From assembly GCA_043745295.1 (NCBI GenBank), contig JAYTTN010000714.1, forward strand, positions 19,500 through 83,499: a DNA stretch of 64,000 bases. The letters run 5' to 3'. Below the pieces are notes generated by a model. That model was not told the DNA's origin. It saw only the letters and a program-made list of their open reading frames with translations, and made no database searches. Of the stretch, positions 10,257 through 36,987 are shown piece after piece. Origin of the DNA: Fimbriiglobus sp. (lineage in GTDB: Bacteria; Planctomycetota; Planctomycetia; Gemmatales; Gemmataceae). Within the stretch, counting starts at the first letter, position 1; every line of letters starts with the position of its first letter. The position numbers were made by a program, and so were the translations under genes.

Positions 10257-10270
10257 GGCCACCCCGAAAG

Positions 10271-17413: not shown

Positions 17414-17450
17414 GTCCCACTTGACCAGCCGTCCCACTTCGTGGTAGACT
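17414..17450 (+). promoter_or_regulatory. Candidate promoter and operator of the TA operon
   Basis: TTGACC (17421-17426), 18 nt, then TAGACT (17445-17450). It is overlapped by the direct repeats GTCCCACTT at 17414-17422 and 17431-17439. Confidence 0.4.
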
Positions 17451-17480
17451 ACCTTGGAAGATAAGCCGGAAGGAGGCTCC

Positions 17481-17759
17481 ATGCACAGCGAAACCCGCAC
17501 CACCGACGCCAAGGCGCGGCTGGTTCTGCCCAAGGCGTTCGCAAACGCCACCGTCATTATCGAGCAGTTGAGCGATAACGAGGTCCGCGTCCGCCGGGCG
17601 AAGGTCGTCGCAGAAGACGAGTTGCCATTCGCCGAAGAATCGTCGGCCCCGCTGTCCGACCGCGACCGCGACCGCTTCTTGGAACTGCTTGCCAATCCAC
17701 CGGCCCCGACGCCGGCCCTCAAAAAGGCGGCCGCACGCCACAAGGCCCGTCGTGGCTGA
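17481..17759 (+). CDS. Antitoxin: AbrB/SpoVT-like N-terminus with a TacA (DUF1778)-like C-terminal segment
   Basis: ATG at 17481 follows GGAGG. KARLVLPKAFANATVIIEQLSDNEVRVRRA is a swapped-hairpin type. LSDRDRDRFLELLANPPAPTPALKKAAARH resembles the TacA C-terminus. Confidence 0.7.
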   Translation: MHSETRTTDAKARLVLPKAFANATVIIEQLSDNEVRVRRAKVVAEDELPFAEESSAPLSDRDRDRFLELLANPPAPTPALKKAAARHKARRG

Positions 17760-18255
17760 TTGGACGATCGAGCCGTTCGGCAAAGATCACGAGCGGTCGG
17801 GTTTCTCGTGCGGGCGAACTTCGCTCGATGATTTTATCCGCGCCCGCGTGAGCCAGTACGAGAAGCGGCGGCTCGGCAAGACGTTCGTCGCCGTCCCCCC
17901 AGGCGAGAAGCGGGTCGTCGGTTACTACACACTCGCGGCCGGTGCGGTGGCGTTTGAGCATTTGCCGGAGGATGCCTCCCGCAAGCTACCGAAACATCCT
18001 GTGCCCGTAGTGCTCTTGGCCCGGCTCGCGGTCGATCAATCGGCGCAGGGCAAGGGGTTGGGGGAGGCGTTATTGCTCGACGCGCTCCAGCGGGCGCTCG
18101 ACCTGTCCACCGGCCTCGGCGTCCATGCGGTGGAAGTAGACGCGATCGATGACGCGGCCGCCGCTTTCTACGGCAAGTACGGATTCGTGCCGCTTCTGGA
18201 CGAACCGTTGTCTCTGTATCTGCCGATTGCGACTATTGAGCGCGTGCTGGGCTAA
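17752..18255 (+). CDS. GNAT-family acetyltransferase toxin (TacT-like)
   Basis: GTG at 17752 overlaps the antitoxin stop by 8 nt. FSCGRTSLDDFI...LLARLAVDQSAQGKGLGEALL...FYGKYGF carries GNAT motif A. Confidence 0.8.
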   Translation: MADWTIEPFGKDHERSGFSCGRTSLDDFIRARVSQYEKRRLGKTFVAVPPGEKRVVGYYTLAAGAVAFEHLPEDASRKLPKHPVPVVLLARLAVDQSAQGKGLGEALLLDALQRALDLSTGLGVHAVEVDAIDDAAAAFYGKYGFVPLLDEPLSLYLPIATIERVLG

Positions 18256-18425
18256 ATTCCCTATCACAGCAATGTATTATGCACAGAGGACAGCCGATTC
18301 TGCCATTGGATGCAGCGATATGGTGGCCATGTCACGCGAGTTGCAAGAGTGGTCTTGGGATGAGTGTTGCCGCTGCGAAAAGGATCGAGCCAGCAGGACA
18401 ATCGCTACGACCTGTGAGGAGTTCG

Positions 18426-18692
18426 ATGTTGGACACCGCGAATTTACCTGTCGGATCGCCTGCCGTACTGGCAGAGCGTGAGGGCCGACGGCCGGTTCCG
18501 ATCTACCAAACGCATCGATCGTTTGCAAGACACTTAAGCTCCGCATTCCGTGCGATCCTCACGGCCGCCAAAATCGAACACGACGCAGATTTCTGGGAGG
18601 GGCTTTACCGAGGAGTCGATTTCACCGGCGAGACGGTACTCGATCCTTTTGTCGGCGGCGGAACCTCAGTCGTCGAGGACGCGCGGCGCGCG
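18426..18692 (+). pseudogene. N-terminal remnant of a DNA methylase (COG1743/DUF1156-like)
   Basis: THRSFARHLSSAFRAIL ... GETVLDPFVGGGTSVVEDARRA (motif I), after which the similarity ends. The frame runs into the convergent methyltransferase gene. Confidence 0.35.
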
Positions 18693-18729
18693 CGAACGTG
18701 CGGTACATGTTCGGCTCCTCCCCGACGGA

Positions 18730-19320
18730 TCAAGAGTGGCTTAGGCGGAAGGGTCGTCGCATGACCATTCCCCAGTGCCAGGAGCAGCAACACAACGACT
18801 CGTCGCGGACGAACTCCAACCCAGCTTTCTCGCCCCAGCTCCGGCATTGCTCGGCGGTCGGGCGGATCGGCATCGACGGCCCGCGTGGGGTCGGGGTGTC
18901 GGTTCGCCAGTGGATGACGCCGGCCAGACCGCCGGGGGCTAACACCCGGCGGGCCTCCCGCAGCAACCCGACCGGGTCTTCGACGTGCAAAATGTTGAAG
19001 AGCATTGCGTAGCCGGCCCGTCCGCCTGGCAGCCCACACCCCTCAGCTACGAAATCCCGAACCTCGGTCGTGACGTTCGACAGCCCTTCCGCGTCCGCTT
19101 TGCGGGTCAACTCGCTGAGGACGTCCGGCTCGATGTCTAGGGCGTACACCCGCCCCTCGACGGCACGAGCGGCGGGGAGCGTGAACGTGCCGTACCCGCA
19201 ACCGAACTCGACCACGTCGCCGCACGGCCCGGAGCAGCCGAGCCGGTCGAGGATGCACGCCGGGTTGAAAAACGTCTCCCAGTAGGACTCGTCCGGCATC
19301 CCGCTCTCTCTACCTTTCAT
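18730..19320 (-). CDS. Class I SAM-dependent methyltransferase
   Basis: Motif I VVEFGCGYGTFTL. Its start overlaps the stop of the ATPase gene by 11 nt, so it is probably co-transcribed. Confidence 0.75.
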   Translation of the reverse strand: MKGRESGMPDESYWETFFNPACILDRLGCSGPCGDVVEFGCGYGTFTLPAARAVEGRVYALDIEPDVLSELTRKADAEGLSNVTTEVRDFVAEGCGLPGGRAGYAMLFNILHVEDPVGLLREARRVLAPGGLAGVIHWRTDTPTPRGPSMPIRPTAEQCRSWGEKAGLEFVRDESLCCCSWHWGMVMRRPFRLSHS

Positions 19321-21478
19321 CTGCGCCTCCCGCTACCACCTCATTTCCCCGCAACAGACGCAGCCCGTTGAAGACGACGAGCAGAGACGCCCCGGTGTCG
19401 GCGGCAATCGCGGCCCACAGGGACGAGTACCCTACGAACGTGAGGATCATGAACACTGCTTTTACGGCCAACGAGAACGCGACGTTTTGCCGGATCACCG
19501 ACAGTGTCCGACGGCTGTGACGGATCAGCCACGGCAGCTTGCCCAAGTCGTCCGACATGAGCGCCACATCCGCCGTCTCGATGGCCGCGTCCGTCCCCGC
19601 CGCCCCCATCGCCACGCCCAGGCTGGCCCGCGCCAGGGCGGGAGCGTCGTTTATCCCGTCGCCGACCATCGCCACGGAGCCGAACTCGGCGACCAGTGCC
19701 TCGACCGCCGCGACCTTCTCCTCGGGCAGCAGCCCGGCCCGCACGTCGTCTACCCCGGCGTCCTTGCCGACGGCCCGGGCCGTGGCCTCGTTGTCGCCCG
19801 TCAGCATCACGACCCGGACAACGCCGAGTTCCTTAAGTTCGCGGATCGCGTCCTTCGCCGCCGGGCGGACGGCGTCGGCCAGGGCGATCAGGCCGCAGAC
19901 GTGCATCGCGTTCCCGACCACGACGACTGACCGGCCCGCTGCGGCCATCGCCGCAATCCGCCCGTGAACGTCCTGCGTCTCCTGCCCTCGCTCGGTCAGA
20001 TAGCGGGGCGACCCCACCCAGAACTCTCGCCCCCTCCACCGCCCCACGGCACCCTTGCCCGGCAAGGCCCGGAGGTCTTCGGCGGTTGTGAGGGTGATCC
20101 CCTTCGAGGTGGCGTACTCGATGACGGCTCGCGCCAGCGGGTGTTCGCTCCGGGCCTCCAACCCGACAGCCCGTTCGAGCAGTTCCGCCTCGTCGTGTCC
20201 GTTGAGCGGCACGACCTCCACTACAATGGGGCGGCCCTCTGTTAACGTCCCCGTCTTGTCCAGGGCTACGGCCTTCAGCCGAGCCGGAAGCTCGATATAC
20301 ATTCCGCCTTTGACCAGCACGCCGTTGCGGGCGGCGGCGGTCAACGCGGCTACGATGCTCACCGGCGTCGAGATCACCAGGGCGCACGGGCAGGCGATGA
20401 CCAACATCACCAACGCCCGGTAGAGCCACTCCCACCACCCGCCGCCGAGCAGGGGCGGGACTACGGCCACGAACACCGCCAGGGCCATCACGGCCGGGGT
20501 GTAGAACGATGCGAACTGATCGACCCACCGCTCGGACGCCGCCCGCCGCGACTGCGACTCCCCGACCATGCGGATGATCCGGGCGAGGGTGGTGTCGTTC
20601 GCGGCCTTAGTGACCGTTACCTCCAGCACGCCCTCGCCGTTAACGGTGCCGGCGAACACGTCGTCTCCGGGCTGCTTCGGGGCCGGGACGCTCTCGCCGG
20701 TGATCGGGGCCTGGTTGACGTGACCGGCCCCCTTCTTGACCTTCCCGTCGAGGGGGATGCGTTCGCCGGGCCTCACGACGAACACCGCACCGATTGCTAC
20801 GGCTTTGACCGGGATACTGCGTTCGGGGCCGCTATCAGAAATCAGCCGGGCGGTCGGCGGGACGAGGTCGAGCAATGACGCGACCGCCCGGCGGACCCGC
20901 CCGACGCTCCACGCCTCCAACTCCAGCGACAGGGCGAACAGGAACGCGACCGTCGCGGCCTCGGCCCACTCGCCGATCACGACGGCACCGGCCACGGCCG
21001 CCACCATCAAGAGGTTCATGTCCGGCCGCAGCCGCTTGAGGGCGACCCACGCCTTCGGCAGCACCAGCCACAGCCCGGCGAGGATGGCCGCACCGTAGCC
21101 GACCTGGGCGGGGACGCCGGGCTTCTCGCCCCACCCGGCGGCGATGTGGAAGGCGACACCACCCAGAGCCGCCGAACCGCTCAAGGCGGTCAGGGTCGTT
21201 CGCCCCCATCTCGTCCAAAAGTTGCGTCCCTCTTCGGGGGCCTCATCTCCATGTCGGGACTCGGCCCGCATCCCCGTCCGGGCCACCGCTGCTATGATCC
21301 TGTCCGCAGTGACTTCTTCCAGGCCGGCGTTGACAGTCATGCGGGCGTTGATGAGATCACAGACGACGCGGTCCGCCCCTCCGACTATGGCCCCGACCTC
21401 CCGTTTCAGCGCCGCCACCTCCTCGGAGCAGTCCATACCCCGGATGGTGAATTCCTGCCTGGTTTTACTCATCTCCAT
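19310..21478 (-). CDS. zntA: Heavy-metal P1B-type ATPase (Zn/Cd/Pb class)
   Basis: CPC in ACPCALVISTP, DKTGTLT, GDGINDAP, and ADTGASLLVVFNGLRLL. The N-terminal HMA fold carries GMDCSEEV (CxxEE) instead of CxxC. Confidence 0.88.
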   Translation of the reverse strand: MEMSKTRQEFTIRGMDCSEEVAALKREVGAIVGGADRVVCDLINARMTVNAGLEEVTADRIIAAVARTGMRAESRHGDEAPEEGRNFWTRWGRTTLTALSGSAALGGVAFHIAAGWGEKPGVPAQVGYGAAILAGLWLVLPKAWVALKRLRPDMNLLMVAAVAGAVVIGEWAEAATVAFLFALSLELEAWSVGRVRRAVASLLDLVPPTARLISDSGPERSIPVKAVAIGAVFVVRPGERIPLDGKVKKGAGHVNQAPITGESVPAPKQPGDDVFAGTVNGEGVLEVTVTKAANDTTLARIIRMVGESQSRRAASERWVDQFASFYTPAVMALAVFVAVVPPLLGGGWWEWLYRALVMLVIACPCALVISTPVSIVAALTAAARNGVLVKGGMYIELPARLKAVALDKTGTLTEGRPIVVEVVPLNGHDEAELLERAVGLEARSEHPLARAVIEYATSKGITLTTAEDLRALPGKGAVGRWRGREFWVGSPRYLTERGQETQDVHGRIAAMAAAGRSVVVVGNAMHVCGLIALADAVRPAAKDAIRELKELGVVRVVMLTGDNEATARAVGKDAGVDDVRAGLLPEEKVAAVEALVAEFGSVAMVGDGINDAPALARASLGVAMGAAGTDAAIETADVALMSDDLGKLPWLIRHSRRTLSVIRQNVAFSLAVKAVFMILTFVGYSSLWAAIAADTGASLLVVFNGLRLLRGNEVVAGGADER

Positions 21479-21545
21479 AATATACTACTCCTACATTAAT
21501 TACATATCATTACAGATAGCAAATCTGCTCAATACAATGCTTGGC
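21479..21545. promoter_or_regulatory. AT-rich putative promoter region of the ATPase operon
   Basis: A sharp drop in GC directly upstream of the start. It contains the small palindrome CAGATagcaaATCTG at 21513-21527. Confidence 0.3.
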
Positions 21546-21651
21546 AGGGAATGCACGCCTCGCGGGCACCTGTAGCTGAATCCGGCTAGCAAGTCCGTAG
21601 TTCTCTAGCGGGTTGCAGCGTGGGTATGTGTCTTCGCCGACCTCCCAAGCG

Positions 21652-21783
21652 TCATGCAGCTAGCGTCCGGGATACGTTTACCGCCGCCAGTACGACCCCG
21701 GCCGACCCGAGTGCGATCGTGACGGCCCAGGCCACGCCGCCGCCATGACGGGCTGGCACGATCGGGTTCTTCGGTACGCTCAT
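21652..21783 (-). CDS. Possible 43-aa membrane peptide
   Basis: ATG at 21783 follows GAGG. The product is MSVPKNPIVPARHGGGVAWAVTIALGSAGVVLAAVNVSRTLAA. Weak call. Confidence 0.25.
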   Translation of the reverse strand: MSVPKNPIVPARHGGGVAWAVTIALGSAGVVLAAVNVSRTLAA

Positions 21784-21856
21784 GCCGCCTCGGGCGGCGG
21801 GCCACCGAATTTCCCGGGTCACCCCCGGCGGCCGGCTGATGCCGAGGTTCCCGCCT

Positions 21857-23152
21857 CTACTCGACCATCCCCTCATCGCCGCGGGGCCCCTGGTCTGCCG
21901 GGGCCGGCCGGTTGAACAACCCGACTAGCGCAAAGTCCCACGCGCGGCGGCCGGTCCACAGAAGCGTCATGGCCGCTAGGACGAGGTAGACCCACGCCGC
22001 CTCGGTCAGCACCCGGACCGACCGGGCCTCGTCGGCCCGCAGCGCGAAGCTGACGGCCAACTGGCCGGCGAATAGGGAGAACAGGGCCACGGCACCGGCC
22101 GGCCCAAGACGTCGGCGCATGAGGACGGCGACGGCGAACGCAGACTGGGCCGCTGTCAGGAAGAACTCCTCCCGTTGGCGCTCGTCCAGAGGCAGGGCGG
22201 CCGGGTGACCCGCCGCCACCGAGTAGACGATCGGCAGCATGCCCACGAGGAGCGTCCACTGGTTGATCTTGTCGCTCGCCAGAACCCCCAGCCCGTTAGC
22301 CGGCCGGCCCCTCAAACAGTACAGGATTGCTACGACTACCGCTGGTGCCTCGCTGGCCAGCGGGGCCAACCACTGGATGAGCAGAAACTCGTCGATGCCC
22401 CACTCCCGGCCGACCCCGACTAGCGACTCGGCGAACGGCTCGGCGGCGGCCAGAATGACGGCGGCCGCGAACGTGATGAGTCCGGCGATCATTACGTACT
22501 GCCGGCCACGCGGCAGGCGGCCGATCGCCGCCGCCGGCCCGACAACTTCTTCCTCCACCGCCTCCGAGGTCCCGCTGACCCGCCACAGGTAGGCCGCGAA
22601 TATGCCCAGCAATACGAGCGCGTCAAACAGGGTGATTCGCCCCTTCAGGACGATTACGAACGAGTACAAGGTGGCCACGCCCAGGAACGCTACCTCGGCG
22701 GAGTTCTCCCACCGCAACGTGACGGCCCGCCGCCCCGTGCGGACCCAGCCGAGCAGGGCGACCAACGGCCAGGCCAGACCGATTAACAGGCGGTTGGCTC
22801 CGGTCATGTTGGCGGCCGCGTACTGGACGTATTTCGAGCCCGGGTTCAGACCGGCCTGGTACGTGTAGTAAACGTCCACCGCATACTCAGGCAACACCGT
22901 CACCAGGGCGAGCAGGGCGAGGGTCAGCCCAGGGGAGATGTGGGCCTCGGCGGCCTCGGCCGCCCAGGAAAGCAGGAACCCGGCCCCGAGCACCCCGAGG
23001 CCGAACAGCAGAGCCGCAGCCGGCGGCGGGAGCCCGGCCCCGGTCAGTCGCAGTGCGAGCGCTGGGAGCGTGGCCAACACCGCCAAGCCGTAGGGAACAG
23101 CCATCAGGCCTAGGGTGCCGACCGGAAGCCGGTCTCGGGGGATGTGGGGCAT
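21857..23152 (-). CDS. CaCA-like cation exchanger (Na+/Ca2+ exchanger membrane-region type)
   Basis: Polytopic membrane protein with two alpha-repeat-like motifs, TVLPEYAVD and PLASEAPAVVVA. Start is ATG 23152 (alternative 23233). Confidence 0.55.
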   Translation of the reverse strand: MPHIPRDRLPVGTLGLMAVPYGLAVLATLPALALRLTGAGLPPPAAALLFGLGVLGAGFLLSWAAEAAEAHISPGLTLALLALVTVLPEYAVDVYYTYQAGLNPGSKYVQYAAANMTGANRLLIGLAWPLVALLGWVRTGRRAVTLRWENSAEVAFLGVATLYSFVIVLKGRITLFDALVLLGIFAAYLWRVSGTSEAVEEEVVGPAAAIGRLPRGRQYVMIAGLITFAAAVILAAAEPFAESLVGVGREWGIDEFLLIQWLAPLASEAPAVVVAILYCLRGRPANGLGVLASDKINQWTLLVGMLPIVYSVAAGHPAALPLDERQREEFFLTAAQSAFAVAVLMRRRLGPAGAVALFSLFAGQLAVSFALRADEARSVRVLTEAAWVYLVLAAMTLLWTGRRAWDFALVGLFNRPAPADQGPRGDEGMVE

Positions 23153-23495
23153 CGGTCGTATTCCTCGGCTGGTCACGGGCTCCACCTTTGCTGGCCAGCC
23201 CCGCGTCTGGGCCGTCACTGACGGTTCACGCATGGCACAGCCGGAATTGCAAATTTAAAGCACAACCCGTAACATTGAAAATAACTTATGATTGGTAATT
23301 CTCTTTAAAGGCATTGGCCATATGTTTCTTGCAAACCTGATGCTCGCCTCAGGCGGGAACCGGGTGAACGTATTTAAGAGACCCTGACACAACCTCGGCA
23401 AACCCCTATTTTCAGGCACTTTCGGGGGCTGTGTCAGAGCCTTTAAGCAGCCGTTGGCGTTAATCGCCGGATCCGACCGTCGACAGCACATCGTC

Positions 23496-24893
23496 CTATC
23501 GAGGTGGGAGCGGGACGGACGGCAGGGGCCACTGGTCCTCCAGCATCAGCCCGGCAATCTCCGACGCCGCCCGCCACGCCTCCCCGAGCGACCGGAGGTA
23601 CTCCAGCCTCGCCTCGGCCACCGCACGCTGGGCTTGCAGCACCCGCAGGTACTCGAACTGCCCGCCCTGGAACGCCTTCAACGACAGTTGGTATGTCCGT
23701 TCGGCCTTCGGCAGGATCACGGACTTGTACTTCTCGGCTCGCTGCCGGGCGGCCGCGTAGGTGCCGAACGCCGTGGCCAGCCGCCCGACGAGGTCGTTCT
23801 GGACGCGGCCCACCTCGCTGACCGCCTCGCCGACCTGGGCCTTCGCCGCGAAGATGTTGCCCTGATTGCGATTCCACAGCGGCACCGGGATACTCGCCGC
23901 GATCACCCAGTCGTTCGACTTGTTCTGATTCTGGCGGACGTATCCGGTGCCAACCGTCACGTTCGGGATCGGCTCGACCGTGGCCCGCTTCAGCACCAGT
24001 TGCGCTCGTTCGACGCCGATCTGGGCCGACCGTAGGTCCGGGTGGACGCCGAGGACGTAGTTCCGCAGCCGCTCCAAGTCGTAGTCCGGCAGCGGGAGTT
24101 CGAGGTCGCCAGTAACTTTGGTGAACGGAAGGTCGTCCACGCCGACGCTTGCGGCCAGCCGGCGGAATGCGGCGGGTAACGATTTGGCGGTGGCGTCGAG
24201 TTCGGCCCGGTAGCGTTCCAGATCGACCTCCAGTTGCACCACGTCCAGTTCGCTGCCCTCTTTCGCCTTGAGAAGCTTGTTGGCGTTCTCGACGGACTGC
24301 TCGGCCAGGGTGATGAGTTGCCCCAGGATGTCGGCGCGGCGCTGGAGCGTGACCACCTCGTAGTAGTTTTGCCGCACTTCGGTGAAAAGCCGGTATCGCT
24401 CGGCCACCACCCGCAGCGTGGCCTGATCGACCTCCTTGAGGGCGGCGGCTTTAGACAGCCCCAGCTTGTTCCCCGTCACGATCTCCTGGCTGAAGTGCGG
24501 CGCAGTCCAGATTCCGCCCGGCCCGGTGCGGTCGCCGAGTTCATCGCCTGTGACGGAAAGGGTCGGGTTCGGGTACAGCCCAGCCTGGATTGCTCGGCCC
24601 CGCGCCGTCTCGACCGCCCACCCGACCTGGGCGAGCCGGGGGTTCCGTTCGAGCGTCAAGGCGGTCAGTAGCGGCAGCCCCAGCGGCGGGGGCGTCGATG
24701 ACCCCGTCGCGTCTGCATTCCCGCTGGGCGGTCTGGGGGCTGGCAACTTCCCGCCCTCCTTCCCACTCGCCGGGTCTTCCCGATACCCGGCCTGGACGAC
24801 GGCAAGGGCGGCGGGTCGTGGGGCAGCTGCAGTGGCCGCGACCGGATCGGGCGGACGTGTCACCGCACACCCGGCCAGTCCGGCGAGTGCCAC
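23496..24893 (-). CDS. Outer-membrane efflux factor (CzcC/TolC family); the 5' end appears frameshifted
   Basis: NPRLAQVGWAVETARGRAIQAGLYPNPTLS and a two-fold OEP repeat architecture. The lipobox LAGC sits only 8 residues after the GTG start. A better SD-ATG at 24925 is one nucleotide out of frame. Confidence 0.85.
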   Translation of the reverse strand: MALAGLAGCAVTRPPDPVAATAAAPRPAALAVVQAGYREDPASGKEGGKLPAPRPPSGNADATGSSTPPPLGLPLLTALTLERNPRLAQVGWAVETARGRAIQAGLYPNPTLSVTGDELGDRTGPGGIWTAPHFSQEIVTGNKLGLSKAAALKEVDQATLRVVAERYRLFTEVRQNYYEVVTLQRRADILGQLITLAEQSVENANKLLKAKEGSELDVVQLEVDLERYRAELDATAKSLPAAFRRLAASVGVDDLPFTKVTGDLELPLPDYDLERLRNYVLGVHPDLRSAQIGVERAQLVLKRATVEPIPNVTVGTGYVRQNQNKSNDWVIAASIPVPLWNRNQGNIFAAKAQVGEAVSEVGRVQNDLVGRLATAFGTYAAARQRAEKYKSVILPKAERTYQLSLKAFQGGQFEYLRVLQAQRAVAEARLEYLRSLGEAWRAASEIAGLMLEDQWPLPSVPLPPR

Positions 24894-25053
24894 CCGACCA
24901 GTAGCATCATGTAGTTCTTCGTCATGTCACTTGCCTCCGCGTCCTGCGTGTTTGGTTTGGCGATCCATCGCGGCCTAGCTCCGCAGCGAGCGGGTCGGCT
25001 CACGCCGGCAGCCTGGACGCGAACGGCCCAGGCTGCCAACTGACTACTCGGCA

Positions 25054-25377
25054 CTACTTGCAGCAGTTACCCGACTCGCAGCCGGCGGACGGCTTGCACG
25101 TCTTGGGCTTGGCCTCGACGGTCGGGAGGCAGCAGGACGGGTCGCAGCCCGTCTGGATGCAGCACCGGACGCACTCCTCGCAGCACCCGTCGATGGCGCA
25201 GCAGGCGGCGCACTCGGGGCAGCACCCGCTGCACTCGGGGCAGCAGTCCGCTACCTTGCAGCACGTCTGCTCGGCGGCGACCTGGGCCGGGGACTTCGTG
25301 AACCCGTCGGCGAGCGTGATCCCCGCCACGGACAGGACGGCGACCAGACAGAGGCCGCTGAACAACTTGAAACGCAT
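25054..25377 (-). CDS. Exported, extremely Cys-rich protein (metallothionein-like)
   Basis: Signal peptide MRFKLFSGLCLVAVLSVAGITLA, followed by 22 Cys including 8 CC doublets (CCPECSGCCPECAACCAIDGCCEECVRCC...). GGAG lies upstream. Confidence 0.7.
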   Translation of the reverse strand: MRFKLFSGLCLVAVLSVAGITLADGFTKSPAQVAAEQTCCKVADCCPECSGCCPECAACCAIDGCCEECVRCCIQTGCDPSCCLPTVEAKPKTCKPSAGCESGNCCK

Positions 25378-25462
25378 GATCTTTCTCCAGAACAGATGGT
25401 AAGGTTGGAAACGATGTCACGGGACTTCGGGGAGGCCGACTCGCCTCACGGACCCGTGTCCG

Positions 25463-25846
25463 TTAACACCGCCAAACGCAGTGGAGGATGCGATGCGGGG
25501 GCGACGGGACGGGGATAGCCAAATCGGGACGGAGCCACAGTCGTGGCGCGGCCCGGAAGGCGTCGGCGAAAGTGACGAACACGACCGGCCCAAGATCGAC
25601 TTCGGTGCTGACCGGCGGGGGGGGCTTGAGCCAGTCCAGTTCGTAACAACAGCACCGCTGTGGGAAGGTCGGCTCTGGCGTGACCGGCGACGGCTTCTCG
25701 CTGTCTTTACAGCCGCACAGTTCGCAGCAGCCGCCATGCTTGGCGGCGACCGGCGACCCGACGCGGACGGGACAAACGATGCGACACCAGCCCGGCGGTA
25801 AAGCCAGATTGACGCAGCACAGGATCGCCAAAAATCGAAGCGCCAT
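25463..25846 (-). CDS. Exported Cys-rich protein (CzcI/DUF2946-like?)
   Basis: Hydrophobic N-terminus, GGCCELCGC and RCCCY motifs, and a Pro-rich C-terminus ending HCVWRC. Confidence 0.5.
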   Translation of the reverse strand: MALRFLAILCCVNLALPPGWCRIVCPVRVGSPVAAKHGGCCELCGCKDSEKPSPVTPEPTFPQRCCCYELDWLKPPPPVSTEVDLGPVVFVTFADAFRAAPRLWLRPDLAIPVPSPPHRILHCVWRC

Positions 25847-26037
25847 ACCGAAGCCTCATTTCGCCGGGCAGATTAAGCCAGCGCCGCCGACGAATACCGC
25901 GTCATCCCGGCGGACCCTTTTGGGTCCATACCCCATGTGAATCTTCACCCCGCCCCACCGGCACCGGGAGAGGCGGGACTGACGACACTGTTTCTTTCCT
26001 GCCGGACACACAACATCGTCACCCCGAGCGGGTCAGG

Positions 26038-26376
26038 TCACGTCTTCGGCTTGGCGGTGAAGCTCCCGCCCGGCCCTTCGAGCTTGGTCGGCTCGTAGCC
26101 AGCCTTATCGACCGCCTCCCACAGCGACCGGGGCGACATCACGGCCCCCTGCTTGGGCGTCACGATGAGCAGCTTGGCCTTGATGTCCACCTTCACCTCG
26201 CCCACGCCCGGCACGGCGTACAGCTTGTCGCCGGCCTTCTTCGCGCACGACATGCAGTCCAGGCCGGGGACGGTCAGCTTGGTCGGCACCGGGTCGGCTG
26301 GCGGCTGCCCGCTTACGAAGGCCGGAACGCTCACCGCCGCGAGCGCGACCACCAGAAATCGGTTCAACATCCGCAT
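26038..26376 (-). CDS. Exported HMA-domain metallochaperone
   Basis: ATG at 26376 follows AAGGAG. Signal peptide MRMLNRFLVVALAAVSVPAFVSG. The HMA motif is LTVPGLDCMSCAKKAGDKL. Confidence 0.75.
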   Translation of the reverse strand: MRMLNRFLVVALAAVSVPAFVSGQPPADPVPTKLTVPGLDCMSCAKKAGDKLYAVPGVGEVKVDIKAKLLIVTPKQGAVMSPRSLWEAVDKAGYEPTKLEGPGGSFTAKPKT

Positions 26377-26475
26377 TTCGGACTCCTTCCAGAAGAATCG
26401 ACACATCTCCTCGATGTCTCGCAATGATGTTCCCAGACCGGCCCCGCCGCCCGCTCCGCGAGGCGGGCCGGTTGA

Positions 26476-26685
26476 CTATTTCGCCTCGCCCGTCGCTTCG
26501 GACGGAGGCGTCGGAGGGCGTCTCGACACCTCCCGGCAGGCCGGGGCGACCACCCCCGCCGGACCATCACGGGCCGACGCCACCCCGCACCCGCACAGAC
26601 ACCCGCCCTGCATCGGCAGCAGCAGCCCCATCACCACAAGGGCGACCCGCCGCGAACTCGGACTCCGTGGGACCGGCAGCTTCAT
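26476..26685 (-). CDS. Possible small exported Cys-containing protein
   Basis: MKLPVPRSPSSRRVALVVMGLLLPMQGGCLCGCG... with GAGGAA upstream. It fills an otherwise empty gap in the operon. Weak call. Confidence 0.3.
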   Translation of the reverse strand: MKLPVPRSPSSRRVALVVMGLLLPMQGGCLCGCGVASARDGPAGVVAPACREVSRRPPTPPSEATGEAK

Positions 26686-26771
26686 GGTGTTCCTCTGGTT
26701 GACCGCCTGGCCGTTGGGGACGAGTTCGGACCCTCGCCCCCTTCACACAGGCCGGGCCGCGTGGCGGCGGC

Positions 26772-27176
26772 CTACTTCTTCTCGCCCTTCGCCTCGGGCG
26801 GCAGGGCCGGCGGCTCCTTGCCGTACTTGGCCTTGTAGGCGGCGGCGAACTTCTCGGCCCGCTTCGGGTTACAGATGAAGCACTGCGACTCGGGCCGTTC
26901 GTGTTCCTTGCACCAGTCGCCCTTCTTCTTGTACTCGGCGGCGACCTTCGCATCGCACTGAGCGCAGTCGTGTTCGGGGACGCCGTGCTCCTTGCACCAC
27001 CAGCCGTCGGCGGCGTCCTTCTTCTCGCCGTCCTTCTTCTTCTCGGCCACCGCCTTCGGGTCGTCCTTCGGCCCCTCGGCCTTGTCCTTCTGGCCGCACC
27101 CGCTGAGGGCGAGCAGGGCCAGGGCGGGGAACAGGAAGGCGGTCAGCACCGCCGCTCGCAACGTCGTCGTCTTCAT
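26772..27176 (-). CDS. Lipoprotein with two WCxEHxxPExxCxxC motifs
   Basis: Lipobox LLALSGC. The motifs are WWCKEHGVPEHDCAQCD and DWCKEHERPESQCFICNP. The linkers are Lys-rich. Confidence 0.75.
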   Translation of the reverse strand: MKTTTLRAAVLTAFLFPALALLALSGCGQKDKAEGPKDDPKAVAEKKKDGEKKDAADGWWCKEHGVPEHDCAQCDAKVAAEYKKKGDWCKEHERPESQCFICNPKRAEKFAAAYKAKYGKEPPALPPEAKGEKK

Positions 27177-27211
27177 CGAGGTCTCCTCTCGTTTGGGATA
27201 ACACCGAACCG

Positions 27212-30200
27212 TTACACCGGGGCCGGCTCTTCACGATGAGTCGCCGCCCCCGCCACCGGAGCCACTTTGCCCCGGAACGCCTCGAACGCTTGGTACAGCA
27301 CCCGAAGCACCAACAGCGACATCACCATCGCGCCGATCACGCCGCCGATCACCACCGTGGCCAGTGGGCGCTGCACCTCGGCCCCCATGCCCGTCGAGAA
27401 CGCCATAGGGACGAACCCCAGGCAGGCCACCAGCGTCGTCATCAGCACGGGCCGTAGCCGGGTGAGTGCGGCCTGCTCGATGGCGTCGGTCAGGGCTACC
27501 CCCCGGTCCCGCAGTTGGCGGACGTAGGAGACGAGGATCATGTCGTCGAGGACCGCCACGCCCGACAGGGCGATGAACCCGATGCCGGCACTGATCGAGA
27601 ACGGCATGTCCCGCAGCCACAGGGCGAAGATGCCGCCGACCCAGGCGAACGGGATGCCCGTGAACACCCGGCAGGCGTCCAGCAGGTTCCCGTAGGTGGC
27701 GTACAGCAGGCCGAAGATCAGCACGAACGCCACCGGCACGACGATCATCAGCCGCAGGCTGGCACGCTCCAGTTGCTCGAACTGCCCGCCCCAAGTGATC
27801 GAGTACCGGCCCGACGGGAGTTGCACCCGCTCGGCCGTCTTCCGCCGGGCCTCGGCCACAAAGCTGCCGAGGTCGCGGCCCCGCACGTTGCAGGTGACGG
27901 TGATCCGCCGCTGGCCCCACTCCCGCTGGATCGTGGACGGCCCCTCCACCACCTGCACGTCGGCCAGCCGGGACAGCGGAATGCGGCCCCCGCTCGGTGT
28001 GGTGACCAGCATGTTGCCGATGGCCTCCGGGCTGGCCCGGTCCCGGTCCGGCAGCCGCACCGCCAGCGGGAACCGCACCTGCCCCTCGACCACCTCGCCG
28101 AGCGGCTTCGCTCCGATGGACTCAACCAGATCGAGGACGGCCTGGGCCGGCACCCCGTGGCGGGCGATCTCGTCCTGCTTGATCTTCACCTGGAGGACCG
28201 GCTGGCCGGTCACCTGCTCGACGTTGATGTCCGCGCTGCCCTGGACCGACTTCAGTACCGCCTCGACCTCCCTGGCCTTCGCCACCAGCACGGCGAAGTC
28301 GTCGCCGTAAATCTTCACCCCCACGTCAGACTTGACCCCCGAAATCATCTCGTTCAGCCTCATCTCGATCGGCTGGGTCATGGCATTTCGCTGGCCGGGC
28401 ATGTCCCGCACCGCCTTCTCGATCAACTCCGTCAACTCGGCCTGGGTGCGGGCCTTCGTCCACTTCTGTCGCGGCTTGAGGGTGATGAACACGTCGGTCA
28501 ACTCCACCCCCATCGGGTCGGTCGCCACCTCGGCGGTGCCGGCCCGGCTCCAGACGTGTTCGACCTCGTCGGGGAACGCGGCGAGTATCGCCTTCTCCAT
28601 CTTCGTGTTGGCCCGGACGGACTCCTCCAGGTCGGTCCCGGCCAGCCGCACGACGTTGATGCAGATGGCCCCCTCCGACAGCCGGGGGATGAACTCGGAC
28701 CCGAGCCGAGGGGCGATCATCCCGAAGGCGACCATCAGGACCGTCAGGGCGAACCCGACCACCGCCAGCTTGTGGTGCATCGAGAAGTGCATGACCGGGC
28801 GGTACAGGGCCAGGGCCAGCCGCATCAGGAGCGGCTCCCGCTCGGCGACCTTCTTGGGGAGCAGCAGGCTGGCCAGGACCGGCATCAGCGTCATCGACAG
28901 GATCATCGAGCCGACCAGGGCGAAGATGACGGTCATGGCCATCGGGCGGAACAGCTTTCCCTCGGTCCCCTCCAGCGTCAGGATCGGCAGGTAGACGATC
29001 ATGATGATGAGTTCGCCGAAGAGGGTCGGCTTGCGGACCTCCAGGGCGGCGTCCCGGATGACGGCGAGCTTCCCCCGCTTCTCGGCCTCGCCGTGGCTCA
29101 GGTGGCGGATGCAGTTCTCGACCATCACCACGCTGGAGTCCACCACCATGCCGAAGTCGATGGCTCCGAGGGACAGCAGGCTGGCCGCGACCCCCCACTG
29201 GAGCATCCCGCTGAAGGCGAACAGCATCGACAGCGGGATGGCGAGCGCGACGATCCCCGCCGCCCGCAGGTTGCCCAGGAAGGCGAACAGGACCGCGACG
29301 ACGAACAGCCCGCCCTCGAACAGGTTGTTGCGGACGGTGTGGATGACGTGATCGACCAGTTCCGTCCGGTCGTACACCGGCTCGACCTTCACGTTCGGCG
29401 GCAGGGACGCCTTCACCTCGTCGAGCTTCCGCTTCATCCCCCACGTCACTTCGTGGGTGTTCTCGCCCATCGTCAGGAACCCGAGGCCCAGCACGACCTC
29501 GCCCCTGCCGTCTAGGGTGACCGCCCCCCGCCGGACCTCGTAGCCGACCTCCACGTCGGCCACGTCCCGCACCCGCACGGGCACGCCGTCCTGGGCGGTG
29601 ACAACGATGGCCCCGATCTGCTCGACGTTCGCCGTCCGCCCGACGCCGTGGACGAGCAGCATGTTGCCGCCCTGACTGACACTACCGCCGCCGACGTTGC
29701 GGTTGTTCTTCTGGACGGCCTCGGTCACCTGCTCGAAAGTCAGCCCGTACTTGTGCAAGCGGGCCGGGTCGATGCGGACCTGGTACTGCTTGTCGTACCC
29801 GCCCCAAGTGTTGACCTCGGCGGTGCCGGGGACGGTCCGCATCTTGGGCCGCACCACCCAGTCGTGGACGGTGCGGAGGCTGGTGACATCGTCGCCCTGA
29901 CCGGTCACGACGTAGTGGAACACCTCGCCCAGCCCGGTGGACACCGGCCCCATCTTCGGCCGCTCGACGCCCGCCGGCAGTTGGGCGGTTCCCAACCGTT
30001 CGTTCACGACGGTCCGGGCGAAGTAGATGTCGGTCCCCTCCTCGAAGGTGACCACCACCTGCGACAGCCCGAACTTCGAGATCGACCGGAGCGTCTGAAT
30101 CTTCGGCAGCCCGGAGAGCGCCTGCTCGATCGGGAAGGTGATCTGCGTCTCCACCTCCTCCGGGCCGAGGGCCGGGACGATGGTGTTGATCTGCACCTGC

Positions 30201-30334
30201 ACCGGAGTGGTGTCGGGGAAGGCGTCCACGTCGAGCCGCCGCATCGACAGCACCCCGAAGGCGGCGAACGCCACCGCGGCCAGGATGACCAGCAGCCGGT
30301 TCCGCAGCGAGAAGTCGATGATCCACGTCAGCAC
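27212..30334 (-). CDS. czcA: HME-RND inner-membrane pump (CzcA/CusA family)
   Basis: 1040 aa. The N-terminus reads DVDAFPDTTPVQVQINT...GLSQVVVTFEEGTDIYFARTVVNERL, typical of CzcA. Confidence 0.92.
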   Translation of the reverse strand: MLTWIIDFSLRNRLLVILAAVAFAAFGVLSMRRLDVDAFPDTTPVQVQINTIVPALGPEEVETQITFPIEQALSGLPKIQTLRSISKFGLSQVVVTFEEGTDIYFARTVVNERLGTAQLPAGVERPKMGPVSTGLGEVFHYVVTGQGDDVTSLRTVHDWVVRPKMRTVPGTAEVNTWGGYDKQYQVRIDPARLHKYGLTFEQVTEAVQKNNRNVGGGSVSQGGNMLLVHGVGRTANVEQIGAIVVTAQDGVPVRVRDVADVEVGYEVRRGAVTLDGRGEVVLGLGFLTMGENTHEVTWGMKRKLDEVKASLPPNVKVEPVYDRTELVDHVIHTVRNNLFEGGLFVVAVLFAFLGNLRAAGIVALAIPLSMLFAFSGMLQWGVAASLLSLGAIDFGMVVDSSVVMVENCIRHLSHGEAEKRGKLAVIRDAALEVRKPTLFGELIIMIVYLPILTLEGTEGKLFRPMAMTVIFALVGSMILSMTLMPVLASLLLPKKVAEREPLLMRLALALYRPVMHFSMHHKLAVVGFALTVLMVAFGMIAPRLGSEFIPRLSEGAICINVVRLAGTDLEESVRANTKMEKAILAAFPDEVEHVWSRAGTAEVATDPMGVELTDVFITLKPRQKWTKARTQAELTELIEKAVRDMPGQRNAMTQPIEMRLNEMISGVKSDVGVKIYGDDFAVLVAKAREVEAVLKSVQGSADINVEQVTGQPVLQVKIKQDEIARHGVPAQAVLDLVESIGAKPLGEVVEGQVRFPLAVRLPDRDRASPEAIGNMLVTTPSGGRIPLSRLADVQVVEGPSTIQREWGQRRITVTCNVRGRDLGSFVAEARRKTAERVQLPSGRYSITWGGQFEQLERASLRLMIVVPVAFVLIFGLLYATYGNLLDACRVFTGIPFAWVGGIFALWLRDMPFSISAGIGFIALSGVAVLDDMILVSYVRQLRDRGVALTDAIEQAALTRLRPVLMTTLVACLGFVPMAFSTGMGAEVQRPLATVVIGGVIGAMVMSLLVLRVLYQAFEAFRGKVAPVAGAATHREEPAPV

Positions 30335-30374
30335 GGCAGCACCCCCTTACAGCGGGGGCGTCGGTTCGGGCCTG

Positions 30375-32003
30375 TTACTTGCCGCATGTGCAGCCCTCCC
30401 CCAGGTTGTTCTTGAGGAGTTCGGCCCGCAGGGCGGTGCTGCCCTTGGTCACGACCAGTTCGCCCGGCACCACGCCCGCGATGATCTCGGTGTTCTTGCC
30501 GTCCTTGGCCCCGACCCTAACGGTGCGGACGTGGAACACCTTGGGGCTGCCGTCCTTCAGGTAGTCCTTGTCCCGCACGAAGACGACGTGGCAGCACCCC
30601 TCCCACTGGACGGCCTCGGTCGGCACCACGACGGCCTCCTTCTCCTCCCGCAAGACGACCTGACCGGCCCCGAACGTGTTGGCCCGCAGTCGGCCCGCCG
30701 GGTTCTCGACGGCGGCCCGTAGCTTGATCGTGCGGGTCTTCGGGTCGGCCTCGGTGCTGACCCAGGTGATCTTGCCGCGGGTTTCGGCCCCGGCGTCCGG
30801 TTGGAAACGTACTTCCTGGCCGAGGGCGACGAGCTTGGCGTCTTCCAGGCGCAGGTCGAGCGTTACCCACATCCGCCGGGCGTCGGCCACGGTGAACAGC
30901 AGCTTGGCGATGTCCACGACTTCGCCGGCCACCACGTCCCGCGATGTGACCACGCCGTCCATCGGGGCGACCAGGGGCAGCAGGTTCGTCGTCGCCGTTC
31001 GTGCGTCGAGTGCCTTCGCCACGTCCTCGGGGATGGCGAGGAACCGGACCTTCGCCTCCAGTTGCGCCGACGTGAGCTTCTGGAGGTCGGCCTCGTCCAG
31101 AGGCAGCCCGTAGTTGACGAGCGTCTGGCGGGCGGCGTGGAGCCGAATCTCGCCCTCGCGGACGGCGGCTTCGGACTCGCGGACGCGGGCTTCGGGGACG
31201 GCCCCGGCGGAACTGCGGACGCTGGCCACGACCTGAGTCTTCAGTTGGAGCGAGGCGAACGCCTGGAGCAACTCGGTCTTGGCCTTGCCCACCTCGGCGG
31301 CGTCGATCAGGGCCAGCACGTCGCCAGCCTTGACCGCGTCGCCCTGCTGCTTGAAGACCCTCCAGACGCTGCCGGGCAGGCGCGCCGAGAGTCGGGTGAT
31401 GCGGGTCTGGTCGTAGCCGACCTCGCCGTTGCCGGCGACGGCCTCGGTGACGGGGGCCGTCCATACCGGCTCGACCTCGATCCCCACCTTGTCGGCGGCT
31501 TCCTTCGAGACGAACTGGATTCGCCGCCGGTGCATCTGGCACTTGCGGTTGTTCTCGGGCCGGTCGGTGAACGCCACCGCCCGCTCGGCCTTGGCGAAGT
31601 CGGCCTTCGTGGGGACCGGCGGGGTCGCCGTCTGGGCGACCTCGGGGTGGCACAGCGGGCATTCGTGGACGCCGAACGGCTTGCACCAGCCTACCGGGGC
31701 GAGCTTCGGCATCAGGTCGGTGTCGCACTCCACGCACACGGACTCGGGGACGCCGTGTTCGGCGCACCAGTCTTCCTTGCCCGGGGGTGCTTCGCCGTTC
31801 AGAGCCGAGAACTTCGGCAGGGTCCAGTCGTGCTGGTAGCCCCAGTAGGCGACCCCGGCCAGCACGGCGAACGTGACGACGGCGGGGATCGCGCCCAGGA
31901 CGGCACCGACGAGTTTCCCGACCGCCGACCGGTGGAGCGTGCGGGTGTGTGACGGCGGGTCCGCCGCCACCTGCGGCGGGCGTTCGAGTACGGTGTCGAG
32001 CAT
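30375..32003 (-). CDS. Membrane-fusion (periplasmic adaptor) protein with an N-terminal Cys/His metal-site extension
   Basis: TM anchor, then DWCAEHGVPESVCVECD and GWCKPFGVHECPLCHPEV (nt 31638-31772), then a HlyD/CzcB-type barrel and lipoyl core. Confidence 0.85.
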   Translation of the reverse strand: MLDTVLERPPQVAADPPSHTRTLHRSAVGKLVGAVLGAIPAVVTFAVLAGVAYWGYQHDWTLPKFSALNGEAPPGKEDWCAEHGVPESVCVECDTDLMPKLAPVGWCKPFGVHECPLCHPEVAQTATPPVPTKADFAKAERAVAFTDRPENNRKCQMHRRRIQFVSKEAADKVGIEVEPVWTAPVTEAVAGNGEVGYDQTRITRLSARLPGSVWRVFKQQGDAVKAGDVLALIDAAEVGKAKTELLQAFASLQLKTQVVASVRSSAGAVPEARVRESEAAVREGEIRLHAARQTLVNYGLPLDEADLQKLTSAQLEAKVRFLAIPEDVAKALDARTATTNLLPLVAPMDGVVTSRDVVAGEVVDIAKLLFTVADARRMWVTLDLRLEDAKLVALGQEVRFQPDAGAETRGKITWVSTEADPKTRTIKLRAAVENPAGRLRANTFGAGQVVLREEKEAVVVPTEAVQWEGCCHVVFVRDKDYLKDGSPKVFHVRTVRVGAKDGKNTEIIAGVVPGELVVTKGSTALRAELLKNNLGEGCTCGK

Positions 32004-32127
32004 GATCTTCGTCTCCGGCGTGTGAGAATGCCGACACGCCCTCGGCGGGGTGCCTGCGGGAGCAATGACGAACGAACGGGTTTACCTAGGACGTGAAGAC
32101 ATCACGCCCGGTCGCGGTAGAAGTGAG

Positions 32128-32673
32128 TTAGCAGCGGAGGACGGTGCAGGAGATGGCGAGCAGGTGGCCGGACGGGGGCGGGAGGGGCAGCAAGGCTACG
32201 GCGTGCCGCGACGGCGTGAATCCGCCGAACACGGAGTCCGCAGCGGCGGGCAGCAGTTGATCGAGGACGTGCCGGTCGTCAACCGAGGTGCGTTCGGCCG
32301 CCGGCTGTGGGCCGTCCTGGGCGACGACAAGCGGGATGTGCTTGCACTGGCACGGCTGCCCGTGCGCGATCACTGGATCGGAGTCGGCGGGGGGAGCCTG
32401 GGTAGACGCGGCGTCAGACGGGTCGTCGCTTGCGCGGCGGCACGAACACCGCTTCTCGGACGCGCAGACCTGCCGGCCGCTGCCGTCAACCGCCCCGCGA
32501 GGTTGGACACCCTGATCGGGGACGCCTTCGTCCTGGCAACAGGTGCAAGTCGTCCAGAATGCGTCGATGCACACGCGGCCCTTCGGGCTGATGCAGAGCG
32601 AGAACGCCGGGCCGGCGATCGTCGCCGTGGCCTGCGTTAGCAGTAGCATCAGGGAAAGGATTCGCCGCGTCAC
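32128..32673 (-). CDS. Exported Cys-rich protein at the head of the operon (CzcI/DUF2946-like?)
   Basis: Signal peptide MTRRILSLMLLLTQATATIAG. Motifs CISPKGRVC, CTCC and CQC. Pro-rich C-terminus ending SCTVLRC. Confidence 0.5.
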   Translation of the reverse strand: MTRRILSLMLLLTQATATIAGPAFSLCISPKGRVCIDAFWTTCTCCQDEGVPDQGVQPRGAVDGSGRQVCASEKRCSCRRASDDPSDAASTQAPPADSDPVIAHGQPCQCKHIPLVVAQDGPQPAAERTSVDDRHVLDQLLPAAADSVFGGFTPSRHAVALLPLPPPSGHLLAISCTVLRC

Positions 32674-36984: not shown

Positions 36985-36987
36985 GTC

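Follow-up and report, generated by a model that had tools for sequence, protein, structure and literature searches.

The window analysed here, a stretch of 64,000 nucleotides from a Fimbriiglobus sp. contig (JAYTTN010000714.1), carries on its minus strand a gene (25054..25377) for a small exported protein, one-quarter Cys, with many of its Cys residues arranged as CC doublets (hereafter the CC protein). The gene lies in the middle of a heavy-metal efflux operon of the resistance-nodulation-division (RND) type, directly downstream of a gene for a Pro- and Cys-rich partner protein, and the two form a conserved module that is restricted to Planctomycetota and for which we consider, among other explanations, a metal-thiolate role outside the cytoplasm. 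The features of the module in the window are:

25054..25377, minus strand: CC-doublet-rich exported protein, 107 aa (translated open reading frame, ORF; stop codon 25054..25056)
25309..25377, minus strand: Sec-type signal peptide MRFKLFSGLCLVAVLSVAGITLA, residues 1–23 (read from the sequence; Kyte-Doolittle maximum 2.55, residues 9–23)
25129..25245, minus strand: Cys core CCPECSG CCPECAA CCAIDG CCEECVR CCIQTG CDPSCC, residues 45–83
25198..25251, no strand assigned: 21-nt (7-codon) tandem repeat, 2.5 copies, encoding CCPECxx units (Tandem Repeats Finder)
25463..25846, minus strand: partner protein, 127 aa with 13 Cys and 20 Pro, directly upstream of the CC gene
25378..25462, minus strand: 85-nt spacer from the partner gene to the CC gene; GGAG comes after a conserved nested hairpin, ACACGG...GAGGC-loop-GCCTC...CCGTGT
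24996..25044, minus strand: 15-bp GC-rich hairpin without a U-tract, lying between the CC-gene stop codon, which it directly follows, and the outer-membrane factor gene

The CC gene begins with ATG, has GGAG 8–11 nt 5′ of the start and translates in full to MRFKLFSGLCLVAVLSVAGITLADGFTKSPAQVAAEQTCCKVADCCPECSGCCPECAACCAIDGCCEECVRCCIQTGCDPSCCLPTVEAKPKTCKPSAGCESGNCCK. Its signal peptide, which has neither a twin-arginine motif nor a lipobox as read from the sequence, contains one Arg, one Lys and a hydrophobic core followed by TLA/D (ALA/GG in relatives). Judged from the sequence, cleavage would follow A23 and leave a mature protein of 84 aa (8.56 kDa) that is acidic (pI 4.6). Of its residues 22 are Cys (26%) and one is Phe, while His, Trp, Tyr and Met are absent. 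A preliminary description, made from the DNA sequence alone, had quoted an exported protein with 22 Cys and eight CC doublets in a 6–7-residue rhythm; the quoted sequence is the exact translation, the Sec signal is present, and the rhythm is borne out by counting. Thus, the eight doublets begin at residues 39, 45, 52, 59, 65, 72, 82 and 105, with spacings of 6, 7, 7, 6, 7 and 10 from residue 39 through 82, and Cys-Cys pairs at a lag of 6 or 7 number 19 as against 10.3 expected when the mature sequence is shuffled (P ~0.001). Besides the doublets there are three CCxxC motifs, and CxC is absent. Given 22 Cys, adjacent Cys pairs as such are not enriched in the window protein (8 vs 5.5 expected, P = 0.12); in relatives, enrichment of CC doublets is significant (P from 0.012 down to <5e-5). 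Elsewhere in the window, where 594 stretches of 60 aa or longer are free of stops, no 83-aa stretch has more than 13 Cys. The Cys core holds two 13-residue units with five Cys each, of the form CCxxCxxCC plus a turn. The number of CCxxCxx units varies among CC proteins via the 21-nt tandem repeat, one 7-residue CCPECxx unit being missing in several relatives, where it appears as gaps in two of our alignments (A2 and A6).

A frame of this kind might be no gene at all: it could have stayed open by chance in DNA so rich in G and C, or could be no more than the reverse side of the plus-strand ORF at 25058..25402. Open frames are common at 66% GC, and the antisense frame has an equal GC content at third codon positions (GC3), which is 0.96 for the CC ORF. 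GC3 is in fact uninformative on the frame because the plus-strand ORF, itself the antisense shadow of the CC ORF, uses the same wobble positions, and counts of stop codons in other frames across relatives are likewise uninformative because the DNA is GC-rich. For some pairs, the whole-gene ratio of nonsynonymous to synonymous substitution rates (dN/dS) cannot be placed clearly below 1, but it says little, being inflated by an extreme codon bias (22 of the 23 Cys codons are TGC) that leaves few synonymous choices. Against these points, about 40 relatives have start, signal peptide, Cys core, C-terminal CCK and length in common with it; start, stop and signal peptide are conserved in the minus frame, which is also the operon strand and carries the upstream GGAG; indels among relatives are all of whole codons, with the Cys core invariant in the alignments; and when the search starts from the partner, each locus proves to have a downstream ORF for an exported, Cys-rich protein. 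Conservation decides the matter: the CC ORF is a real, conserved gene, and the probability that it is not one is close to negligible.

The relatives were found at several depths. A word-indexed search of 5.8 billion proteins yielded six with 64–74% identity, a profile search against 1.84 billion cluster representatives recovered 25 of them at E <= 1e-3, and a second profile search added more, to a total of about 40 relatives or clusters with identity down to 32%. All are from Planctomycetota, the named sources being Gemmataceae and Planctomycetia metagenome-assembled genomes (MAGs). Members are ~90–145 aa long, have in common a signal peptide beginning MRxKLF... and share a near-invariant core, CCPECxACCAxDGCCEECxxCCxxMGCDP, starting at residue 52, in which the DNA is largely conserved too; its extended form is [DE]CCPECxACCAxDGCCEECxxCCxxMGCDPxCC[FL]P, and the C-terminus is usually CCxDGCCK. 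Across seven sequences, the 29 core codons show seven amino-acid and three synonymous variants, and the linker and tail vary freely. The Cys count ranges from 12 to 36 across 42 family members, being odd in 27 of the 42, and from 18 to 22 among close relatives. No Pfam or NCBIfam model was matched by the CC protein (E <= 0.1) or by 26 members (E <= 10), the scan at E <= 10 being negative for metallothionein, DUF326/Csp, YTV, Chlamydia OMP and keratin-type families. The CC-family profile found no match among PDB sequences, neither the CC protein nor the partner matched PLSDB plasmids, and the core patterns occur in one MAG only among GTDB species genomes. A full-text literature search returned no description of an exported or periplasmic bacterial metallothionein, of a planctomycete Cys-rich metal protein or of the CC motif. 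As a side observation, a 224-aa entry in the representative library (P0016) joins an integrase-like N-terminal part, in frame, to the second half of a CC-rich protein (...DGCCEECIQCCIEMGCDPSCC...); either the assembly is chimeric here or a rearrangement has cut the CC gene.

Pro makes up 16% and Cys 10% of the partner, whose family has a length of 125–136 aa. The N-terminal hydrophobic helix ends in LALPPGWC (LALPPGWC(C) across the family), and the window protein contains the motifs HGGCCELCGC and RCCCYELDWLKP and the C-terminus PVPSPPHRILHCVWRC, ending ...PPHRILHCVWxC. These correspond in the family alignment to a Pro-rich middle with HxGCCxLCxC and RCCCYELDWLKP, and to an invariant C-terminus PVPSPPHRILHCVW[LR]C. 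As a module we defined a partner that carries LxLPPGWC(C) at its N-terminus and PPxHxLHCxWxC at its C-terminus and whose gene lies directly, by 57–135 nt, 5′ of one for a protein that has a signal peptide and 12 Cys or more. The pair in the window, with its gap of 85 nt, is such a module, and a partner lies directly upstream of an exported Cys-rich ORF in 32 of 32 loci from ~12 lineages, in some of which the partner gene was missed by public gene callers. A partner-first metagenome scan contributed eight further loci, and a partner profile search retrieved at least 81 clusters, none with a functional name ('hypothetical protein' if the source gives one) or a Pfam domain. The partner has no Pfam, NCBIfam or PDB match, and IMG/VR viral contigs hold no relative of it.

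The module extends beyond proteins that can be aligned with the one in the window. Three distant partner members on long contigs were inspected, and at distant partners (25–30% identity) the downstream protein differs, yet it is still exported and Cys-rich. In two loci, L029 (709..909) and L034 (8526..8711), it is a 62-aa exported metallothionein-like ORF with 12 Cys in 38 mature residues (GCCGPKAACKCPCGDKCACGETCKCAGCTCCK in L029). Public gene callers pass over both of these members, that of L034 being absent from the calls for its contig, and genes of this sort can therefore escape annotation. In four others (L030, L031, L032 and L033), CC doublets recur every 7 residues as CCxxxxx arrays, with up to 36 Cys and 18 doublets. 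The second protein of the module thus conserves composition and rhythm rather than sequence, and, given that the distant downstream proteins differ in sequence, the selected unit appears to be an anchored Pro/Cys-rich partner together with an exported CC-rich protein. This two-gene module, restricted to Planctomycetota, is new, being without a name, a model or a literature.

The spacer between the two genes measures 78–96 nt in most loci, 57 nt in L021–L023 and 135 nt in L032. Its hairpin is kept in the CCPEC-type loci (L001–L028), with other hairpins at the same place in distant loci; the consensus fold has 12 pairs, one of them compensatory, and the single-sequence z-score of −0.9 is unremarkable. 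The hairpin that follows the CC gene (24996..25044) has a fold z-score of −1.6. Rfam searches found no known RNA, the latter hairpin giving only a sub-threshold match to a miRNA hairpin.

In the window, the module is set between the gene for the permease, czcA, and that for the outer-membrane factor, with four other small genes, that of the partner included, between czcA and the CC gene, so that the position inside an RND operon given in the preliminary description is correct. The operon and its immediate surroundings comprise, in order of transcription:

32128..32673, minus strand: 181-aa Cys-containing ORF with a signal-like N-terminus, TCTCC, CSC and CQCKH, ending PPPSGHLLAISCTVLRC
30375..32003, minus strand: RND periplasmic adaptor, CzcB-like (HlyD_D23 E = 1e-37; RND_mfp 128 bits), with a Cys/His-rich N-terminal extension
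27212..30334, minus strand: heavy-metal efflux (HME)-RND permease, CzcA/ZneA type (TIGR00914, 1217 bits)
26772..27176, minus strand: 134-aa putative lipoprotein (LSGC) with two WCKEH..PE..C..C motifs; weak lipoprotein-signal match
26476..26685, minus strand: 69-aa ORF, hydrophobic N-terminus then GGCLCGCG; no family match
26038..26424, minus strand: exported HMA-domain protein, MerP/CopZ-like, GLDCMSC (PF00403 E = 1.3e-11; MerP and CopZ models below cut-offs)
23496..24893, minus strand: outer-membrane factor, CzcC/TolC-like (PF02321 E = 6e-35; IhpA-like), directly downstream of the CC gene
21857..23233, minus strand: Na_Ca_ex (CaCA) family membrane protein (PF01699 E = 3e-23)
19310..21478, minus strand: P1B-type ATPase, Zn/Cd/Pb class (TIGR01512 506 bits, cut-off 313; ZntA-like models), at the end of the gene string
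18730..19320, minus strand: S-adenosylmethionine (SAM) methyltransferase

The permease scores 686 bits with ZneA and 627 bits with CusA, whose M573, M623 and M672 align to N, L and E; its transmembrane helix 4, DFGMVVDSSVVMVEN, matches the DFGx3Dx2x3VEN (DFG...D...VEN) motif. Being closer to ZneA and lacking the CusA Met triad, it is a pump of the divalent-cation rather than the Cu(I)/Ag(I) type. The motif of the 134-aa lipoprotein recurs twice at the CzcB N-terminus, in WCxEHGxPExxCxxC-type form (DWCAEHGVPESVCVEC and GWCKPFGVHECPLCHP), and looks from its sequence like a shared putative Cys/His metal-binding module for which there is no family model. Several of the small genes are kept in place in related loci: the lipoprotein has syntenic counterparts of 132–134 aa; ORFs of 62–82 aa occupy the position of the 69-aa ORF in L001, L013, L015 and L018; the HMA gene is syntenic in L001, L010, L013, L015 and L018, its true start probably lying near 26376 because the orthologues have 110–112 aa; and the 181-aa ORF recurs 5′ of czcB in L018 (2193-2747) and L001 (469-993). 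We considered the 181-aa protein as a paralogue of the partner, whose C-terminus it resembles, and discarded this since the profile comparison was not significant (hhalign E = 0.13). Variants of the operon keep the CC block, a cation diffusion facilitator (CDF) replacing the CaCA protein in L018 and a methyltransferase standing between czcB and czcA in L001.

Small SAM methyltransferases also occur near the module, in three arrangements (window 18730..19320, minus strand; L001 2736..3440; L021 1166..1759). As a third component of the module they were rejected, the three sharing only the SAM-binding fold (32–35% identity over ~106 aa). ARAGORN calls a 90-nt tRNA-Arg(ACG) at 27398..27487 (minus strand), inside czcA, which is very probably a false positive.

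More widely, positions 1..44500 of the window carry a RepA gene (PF10134, 9024..10064), a 1892-aa methylase-helicase (11465..17143), a PglX/BREX-like methyltransferase (33868..36984) and two HME-RND systems, and housekeeping genes (L25, Pth, S6, SSB, L9) with carbohydrate-active enzymes begin at 46.6 kb (46600..64000). GC content dips at 10–11 kb and 44–45 kb. The left 44 kb looks like an integrated plasmid or an integrative and conjugative element. Neither MerA nor a mer regulator was found in the window. The second efflux system is:

38315..43942, plus strand: plain czcC-czcB-czcA system in the classical C-B-A order, adaptor with a His-rich N-terminus

The small Cys-rich accessory genes are absent from this system. 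Elsewhere, the surroundings of the module are diverse:

L008: pair adjoins TauE and a Mg-chelatase-like ATPase
L007 and L016: pair between ArgZ-type genes and NarK/NirB-type genes
L020: pair directly preceded by a 630-aa protein (2052..3944) with a C-terminal ResA/TlpA-like thiol:disulfide oxidoreductase domain
L021: downstream of the pair, genes for a short ArsM-like methyltransferase and for a CsoR/RicR-like repressor (1166..2821)

The ArsM-like protein of L021 scores 187 bits against the arsenite methyltransferase model, below the cut-off. A redoxin is encoded ~3 kb from the module in L030, and NorB and ScdA, encoded by nitrosative-stress genes, near that in L032.

Vicinal Cys pairs are familiar as metal or metalloid ligands for Hg, As and Cu in MerT, MerF, the MerA C-terminus, ArsD, Cox17 and CopG. 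In the AlphaFold2 model of the CC protein, the core (pLDDT, the predicted local distance difference test score, of ~70) forms two short helices, residues 54–63 and 67–75, with no beta structure. On a helix, the arrangement CCxxCxxCC (positions i, i+1, i+4, i+7 and i+8) puts five thiols inside a 120-degree arc, so that a helix-turn-helix with five thiols per face would bring together about ten invariant thiols. For the partner, the model (50 sequences; mean pLDDT 65) is confident for the N-terminal helix only, the rest being of low confidence or disordered.

We read the CC protein as a putative, metallothionein-like periplasmic sponge or relay for metals held on thiolates, with a probability of about 0.45. 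The acidic 8.6-kDa protein would, once exported, act like a metallothionein outside the cytoplasm: its thiols would remain reduced or be re-reduced and could wrap soft metal ions as metal-thiolate clusters, the two amphipathic core helices, with an xDG turn between them, presenting their ~ten thiols to each other. Given the types of pump and ATPase, the metals would most likely be Zn(II) and Cd(II); Hg, Pb, Cu(I) and As(III) are conceivable as well. The protein might then buffer periplasmic ions and hold them for the Czc/Zne-type RND pump, with the exported HMA protein, the WCxEH...CxxC lipoprotein and the CzcB N-terminus, the other Cys-based periplasmic proteins of the operon, as possible co-workers. 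The partner may tether, load or unload the CC protein, or keep it reduced, at the membrane surface. Metal binding, the identity of the metal, the redox state of the thiols and contact with the partner or the pump are all what we infer here, and the support is circumstantial: a metallothionein-like composition, the position in a Zn/Cd operon, the persistence of the block in operon variants, the ArsM-like, CsoR-like and TlpA-like neighbours, and the metallothionein-like proteins of distant modules. Moreover, variable and often odd Cys counts, together with varying numbers of repeat copies, are easier to reconcile with flexible ligation by thiolates than with a disulfide-bonded fold that is fixed.

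Several points weigh on the other side. The periplasm is normally oxidising, and the 22 thiols could simply be disulfide-bonded. The periplasmic sponges and chaperones SilE/PcoE and CusF rely on Met and His, not on Cys. The model of the CC protein is weak overall and for the most part disordered or of low confidence (mean pLDDT 53, from an 18-sequence alignment), the partner shows no recognisable fold or catalytic motif in its model, and whole-gene dN/dS is 0.34–1.07, with strong constraint in the core only. The loci in RND operons are 65–77% identical to one another and therefore amount to about one independent observation, and most modules of the wider family stand among unrelated housekeeping genes (L007/L016, L008, L030, L032, L033 and L034). 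Thus, of the periplasmic metal sponge suggested in the preliminary description, the exported and conserved protein in a heavy-metal RND operon holds for the window, and the metal context does not carry over to most of the family, for which reason a cross-linked envelope role and a redox role were also considered.

On the first of these, the CC protein and its anchored partner would be structural, joined by intermolecular disulfides in the planctomycete envelope in the manner of OmcA/OmcB, the Cys-rich outer-membrane complex of chlamydiae, or of the Cys-rich YTV proteins in the wall of Planctomycetia. Planctomycete wall preparations do contain Cys-rich proteins, and the wall has historically been called proteinaceous (PMC8567305, PMC12673574). 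The partner is Pro/Cys-rich, anchored and disordered, odd Cys counts suit intermolecular cross-linking too, most modules keep company with housekeeping rather than metal genes, and the family is confined to Planctomycetota. But no YTV or other wall-protein family is detected even at E <= 10; the CC protein is very small and acidic; distant members resemble classical metallothioneins; and the window gene is embedded in a metal-efflux operon on a mobile island, with L021 adjoining ArsM-like and CsoR-like genes. The rarity of the family (~40 clusters in 5.8 billion proteins, and core patterns in one GTDB species representative) would also be odd for a core wall component, and we regard this explanation as unlikely, while giving it real weight as the chief alternative. 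Less probable still is a periplasmic thiol/disulfide buffer or sacrificial scavenger, in which vicinal Cys would cycle between dithiol and strained vicinal disulfide and so take up oxidants or electrophiles or pass on reducing equivalents, with the partner as a membrane-side relay. CC doublets are dense in both proteins, and there is a ResA/TlpA-like domain directly upstream in L020, a redoxin near L030, and NorB and ScdA near L032. However, the models show no thioredoxin fold or catalytic CxxC context, no electron source of the DsbD/CcdA type is conserved beside the module, and placement inside a Zn/Cd efflux operon is left unexplained; thiol reductases beside Cys metal binders are, moreover, equally expected if metal-binding thiols must be reduced.

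Two further explanations treat the product as a peptide of another kind. A secreted Cys-rich toxin or bacteriocin with a membrane-anchored immunity partner would account for the layout of two genes, one for a small Sec-exported Cys-rich protein and one for a small membrane-anchored protein, and for a mature region that diverges fast while keeping its Cys pattern, as is typical of toxins and defensins. We think this very improbable, since the mature protein is acidic (pI 4.6) with few hydrophobic residues, odd and variable Cys numbers sit badly with a disulfide-knotted toxin, the conserved neighbours include no dedicated transporter, protease or regulator, and the window gene sits mid-operon with an efflux pump. 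A Cys-rich precursor of a ribosomally synthesised and post-translationally modified peptide (RiPP), of the ranthipeptide/SCIFF or thiopeptide kind, has in its favour only high Cys content and small size, and is rejected. The preliminary description had seen no maturase gene nearby, and indeed neither the window operon nor ~12 independent related neighbourhoods contain a radical-SAM, YcaO, LanM/LanC or other maturase gene; in addition, the protein begins with a classical Sec signal rather than with a leader peptide, and the sole constant neighbour is a disordered 125–136-aa protein without an enzyme fold.

Returning to the metal-thiolate sponge or relay, we put forward tentatively, at somewhat less than even odds, a broader proposal: that the module represents an undescribed two-protein periplasmic thiolate system of Planctomycetota, made up of an anchored disordered partner (LPPGWCC ... 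PPxHxLHCVWLC) and a CC protein with heptad rhythm, which would be the first Cys-based extracytoplasmic metal store or relay in bacteria and would have been recruited in some lineages into mobile Zn/Cd efflux operons, there feeding the RND pump. If so, there would be a thiolate metal pool outside the bacterial cytoplasm, raising the questions of how its thiols are reduced and how metal is handed over to an RND pump. This would be surprising, as periplasmic metal buffers usually avoid Cys in an oxidising compartment. If instead the structural explanation is right, the pair would add new small components to the Cys/Pro-rich planctomycete envelope. Either way, a phylum-restricted gene pair is defined, with at least 81 partner clusters and ~40 CCPEC-type clusters, none with a name or a Pfam model, and such short Cys modules of high capacity have potential use in metal capture.

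Among known systems, OmcA/OmcB and the YTV proteins share with the module their provenance from the PVC (Planctomycetes-Verrucomicrobia-Chlamydiae) superphylum and adjacent genes for exported Cys-rich proteins, and OmcA also carries CC doublets; in contrast to them, the CC protein has no YTV tripeptide or domain, no Chlamydia OMP match and no lipobox, and it sits in a metal-efflux operon. The CC doublets also recall MerP/MerT, MerF and ArsD, and the combination of a periplasmic Cys binder with a small CC-containing membrane protein recalls merT-merP; a MerP-like exported HMA protein is, besides, encoded two genes upstream of the CC gene. However, there is no homology to MerT, MerF, MerC or ArsD, and the partner is not a transporter, given its one hydrophobic helix and disordered Pro-rich ectodomain. 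Csp1 (DUF326) is a Tat-exported four-helix bundle of ~120 aa that holds many metal ions on Cys thiolates. The CC protein resembles it in being exported and in having, in its predicted helices, Cys spaced to one face, but it has a Sec signal with a single Arg, is predicted to form two helices of 9–10 residues and has no DUF326 match at E <= 10.

With metallothioneins (the eukaryotic ones, SmtA/BmtA and MymT), the CC protein shares small size, 26% Cys, CC and CxxC motifs, near-absence of aromatic residues and His, and a variable Cys number. It falls within the limits set for metallothioneins on mass (8.56 kDa, against <~10 kDa) and on composition, and the distant module proteins of L029 and L034 read as the classical CxC/CC type. 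It differs in lacking Pfam or NCBIfam homology and CxC, in its Sec signal and in the constant presence of a partner gene. Known bacterial metallothioneins are cytoplasmic. The CC protein is unlike SmtA/BmtA (Metallothio_Pro), as the preliminary description held; these are zinc-finger-like with Cys and His ligands, and the absence of a match and of His and the presence of a signal peptide set it apart from them. If metal binding holds, the CC protein would belong with the metallothioneins and periplasmic sponges as a Cys-based, exported and partner-dependent type. SilE and PcoE are likewise small exported proteins, probably disordered without metal, encoded on mobile islands for silver and copper resistance beside an HME-RND pump and proposed to buffer the periplasm. 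Their ligands are His and Met, Cys being absent, whereas the CC protein has 22 Cys, no His/Met motifs (MxxH, HxxM) and no homology to them, and accompanies a pump of the Zn/Cd rather than the Cus/Sil type. CusF, an OB-fold protein, binds a single Cu(I) or Ag(I) at a Met/His/Trp site (Met2His(Trp)); the CC protein has neither that site nor that fold but many potential sites, and its pump is without the CusA Met triad. Nonetheless, both are small exported proteins encoded within a tripartite metal RND operon, CusF inside cusCFBA, and this shared placement makes hand-over of metal from the CC protein to the pump plausible.

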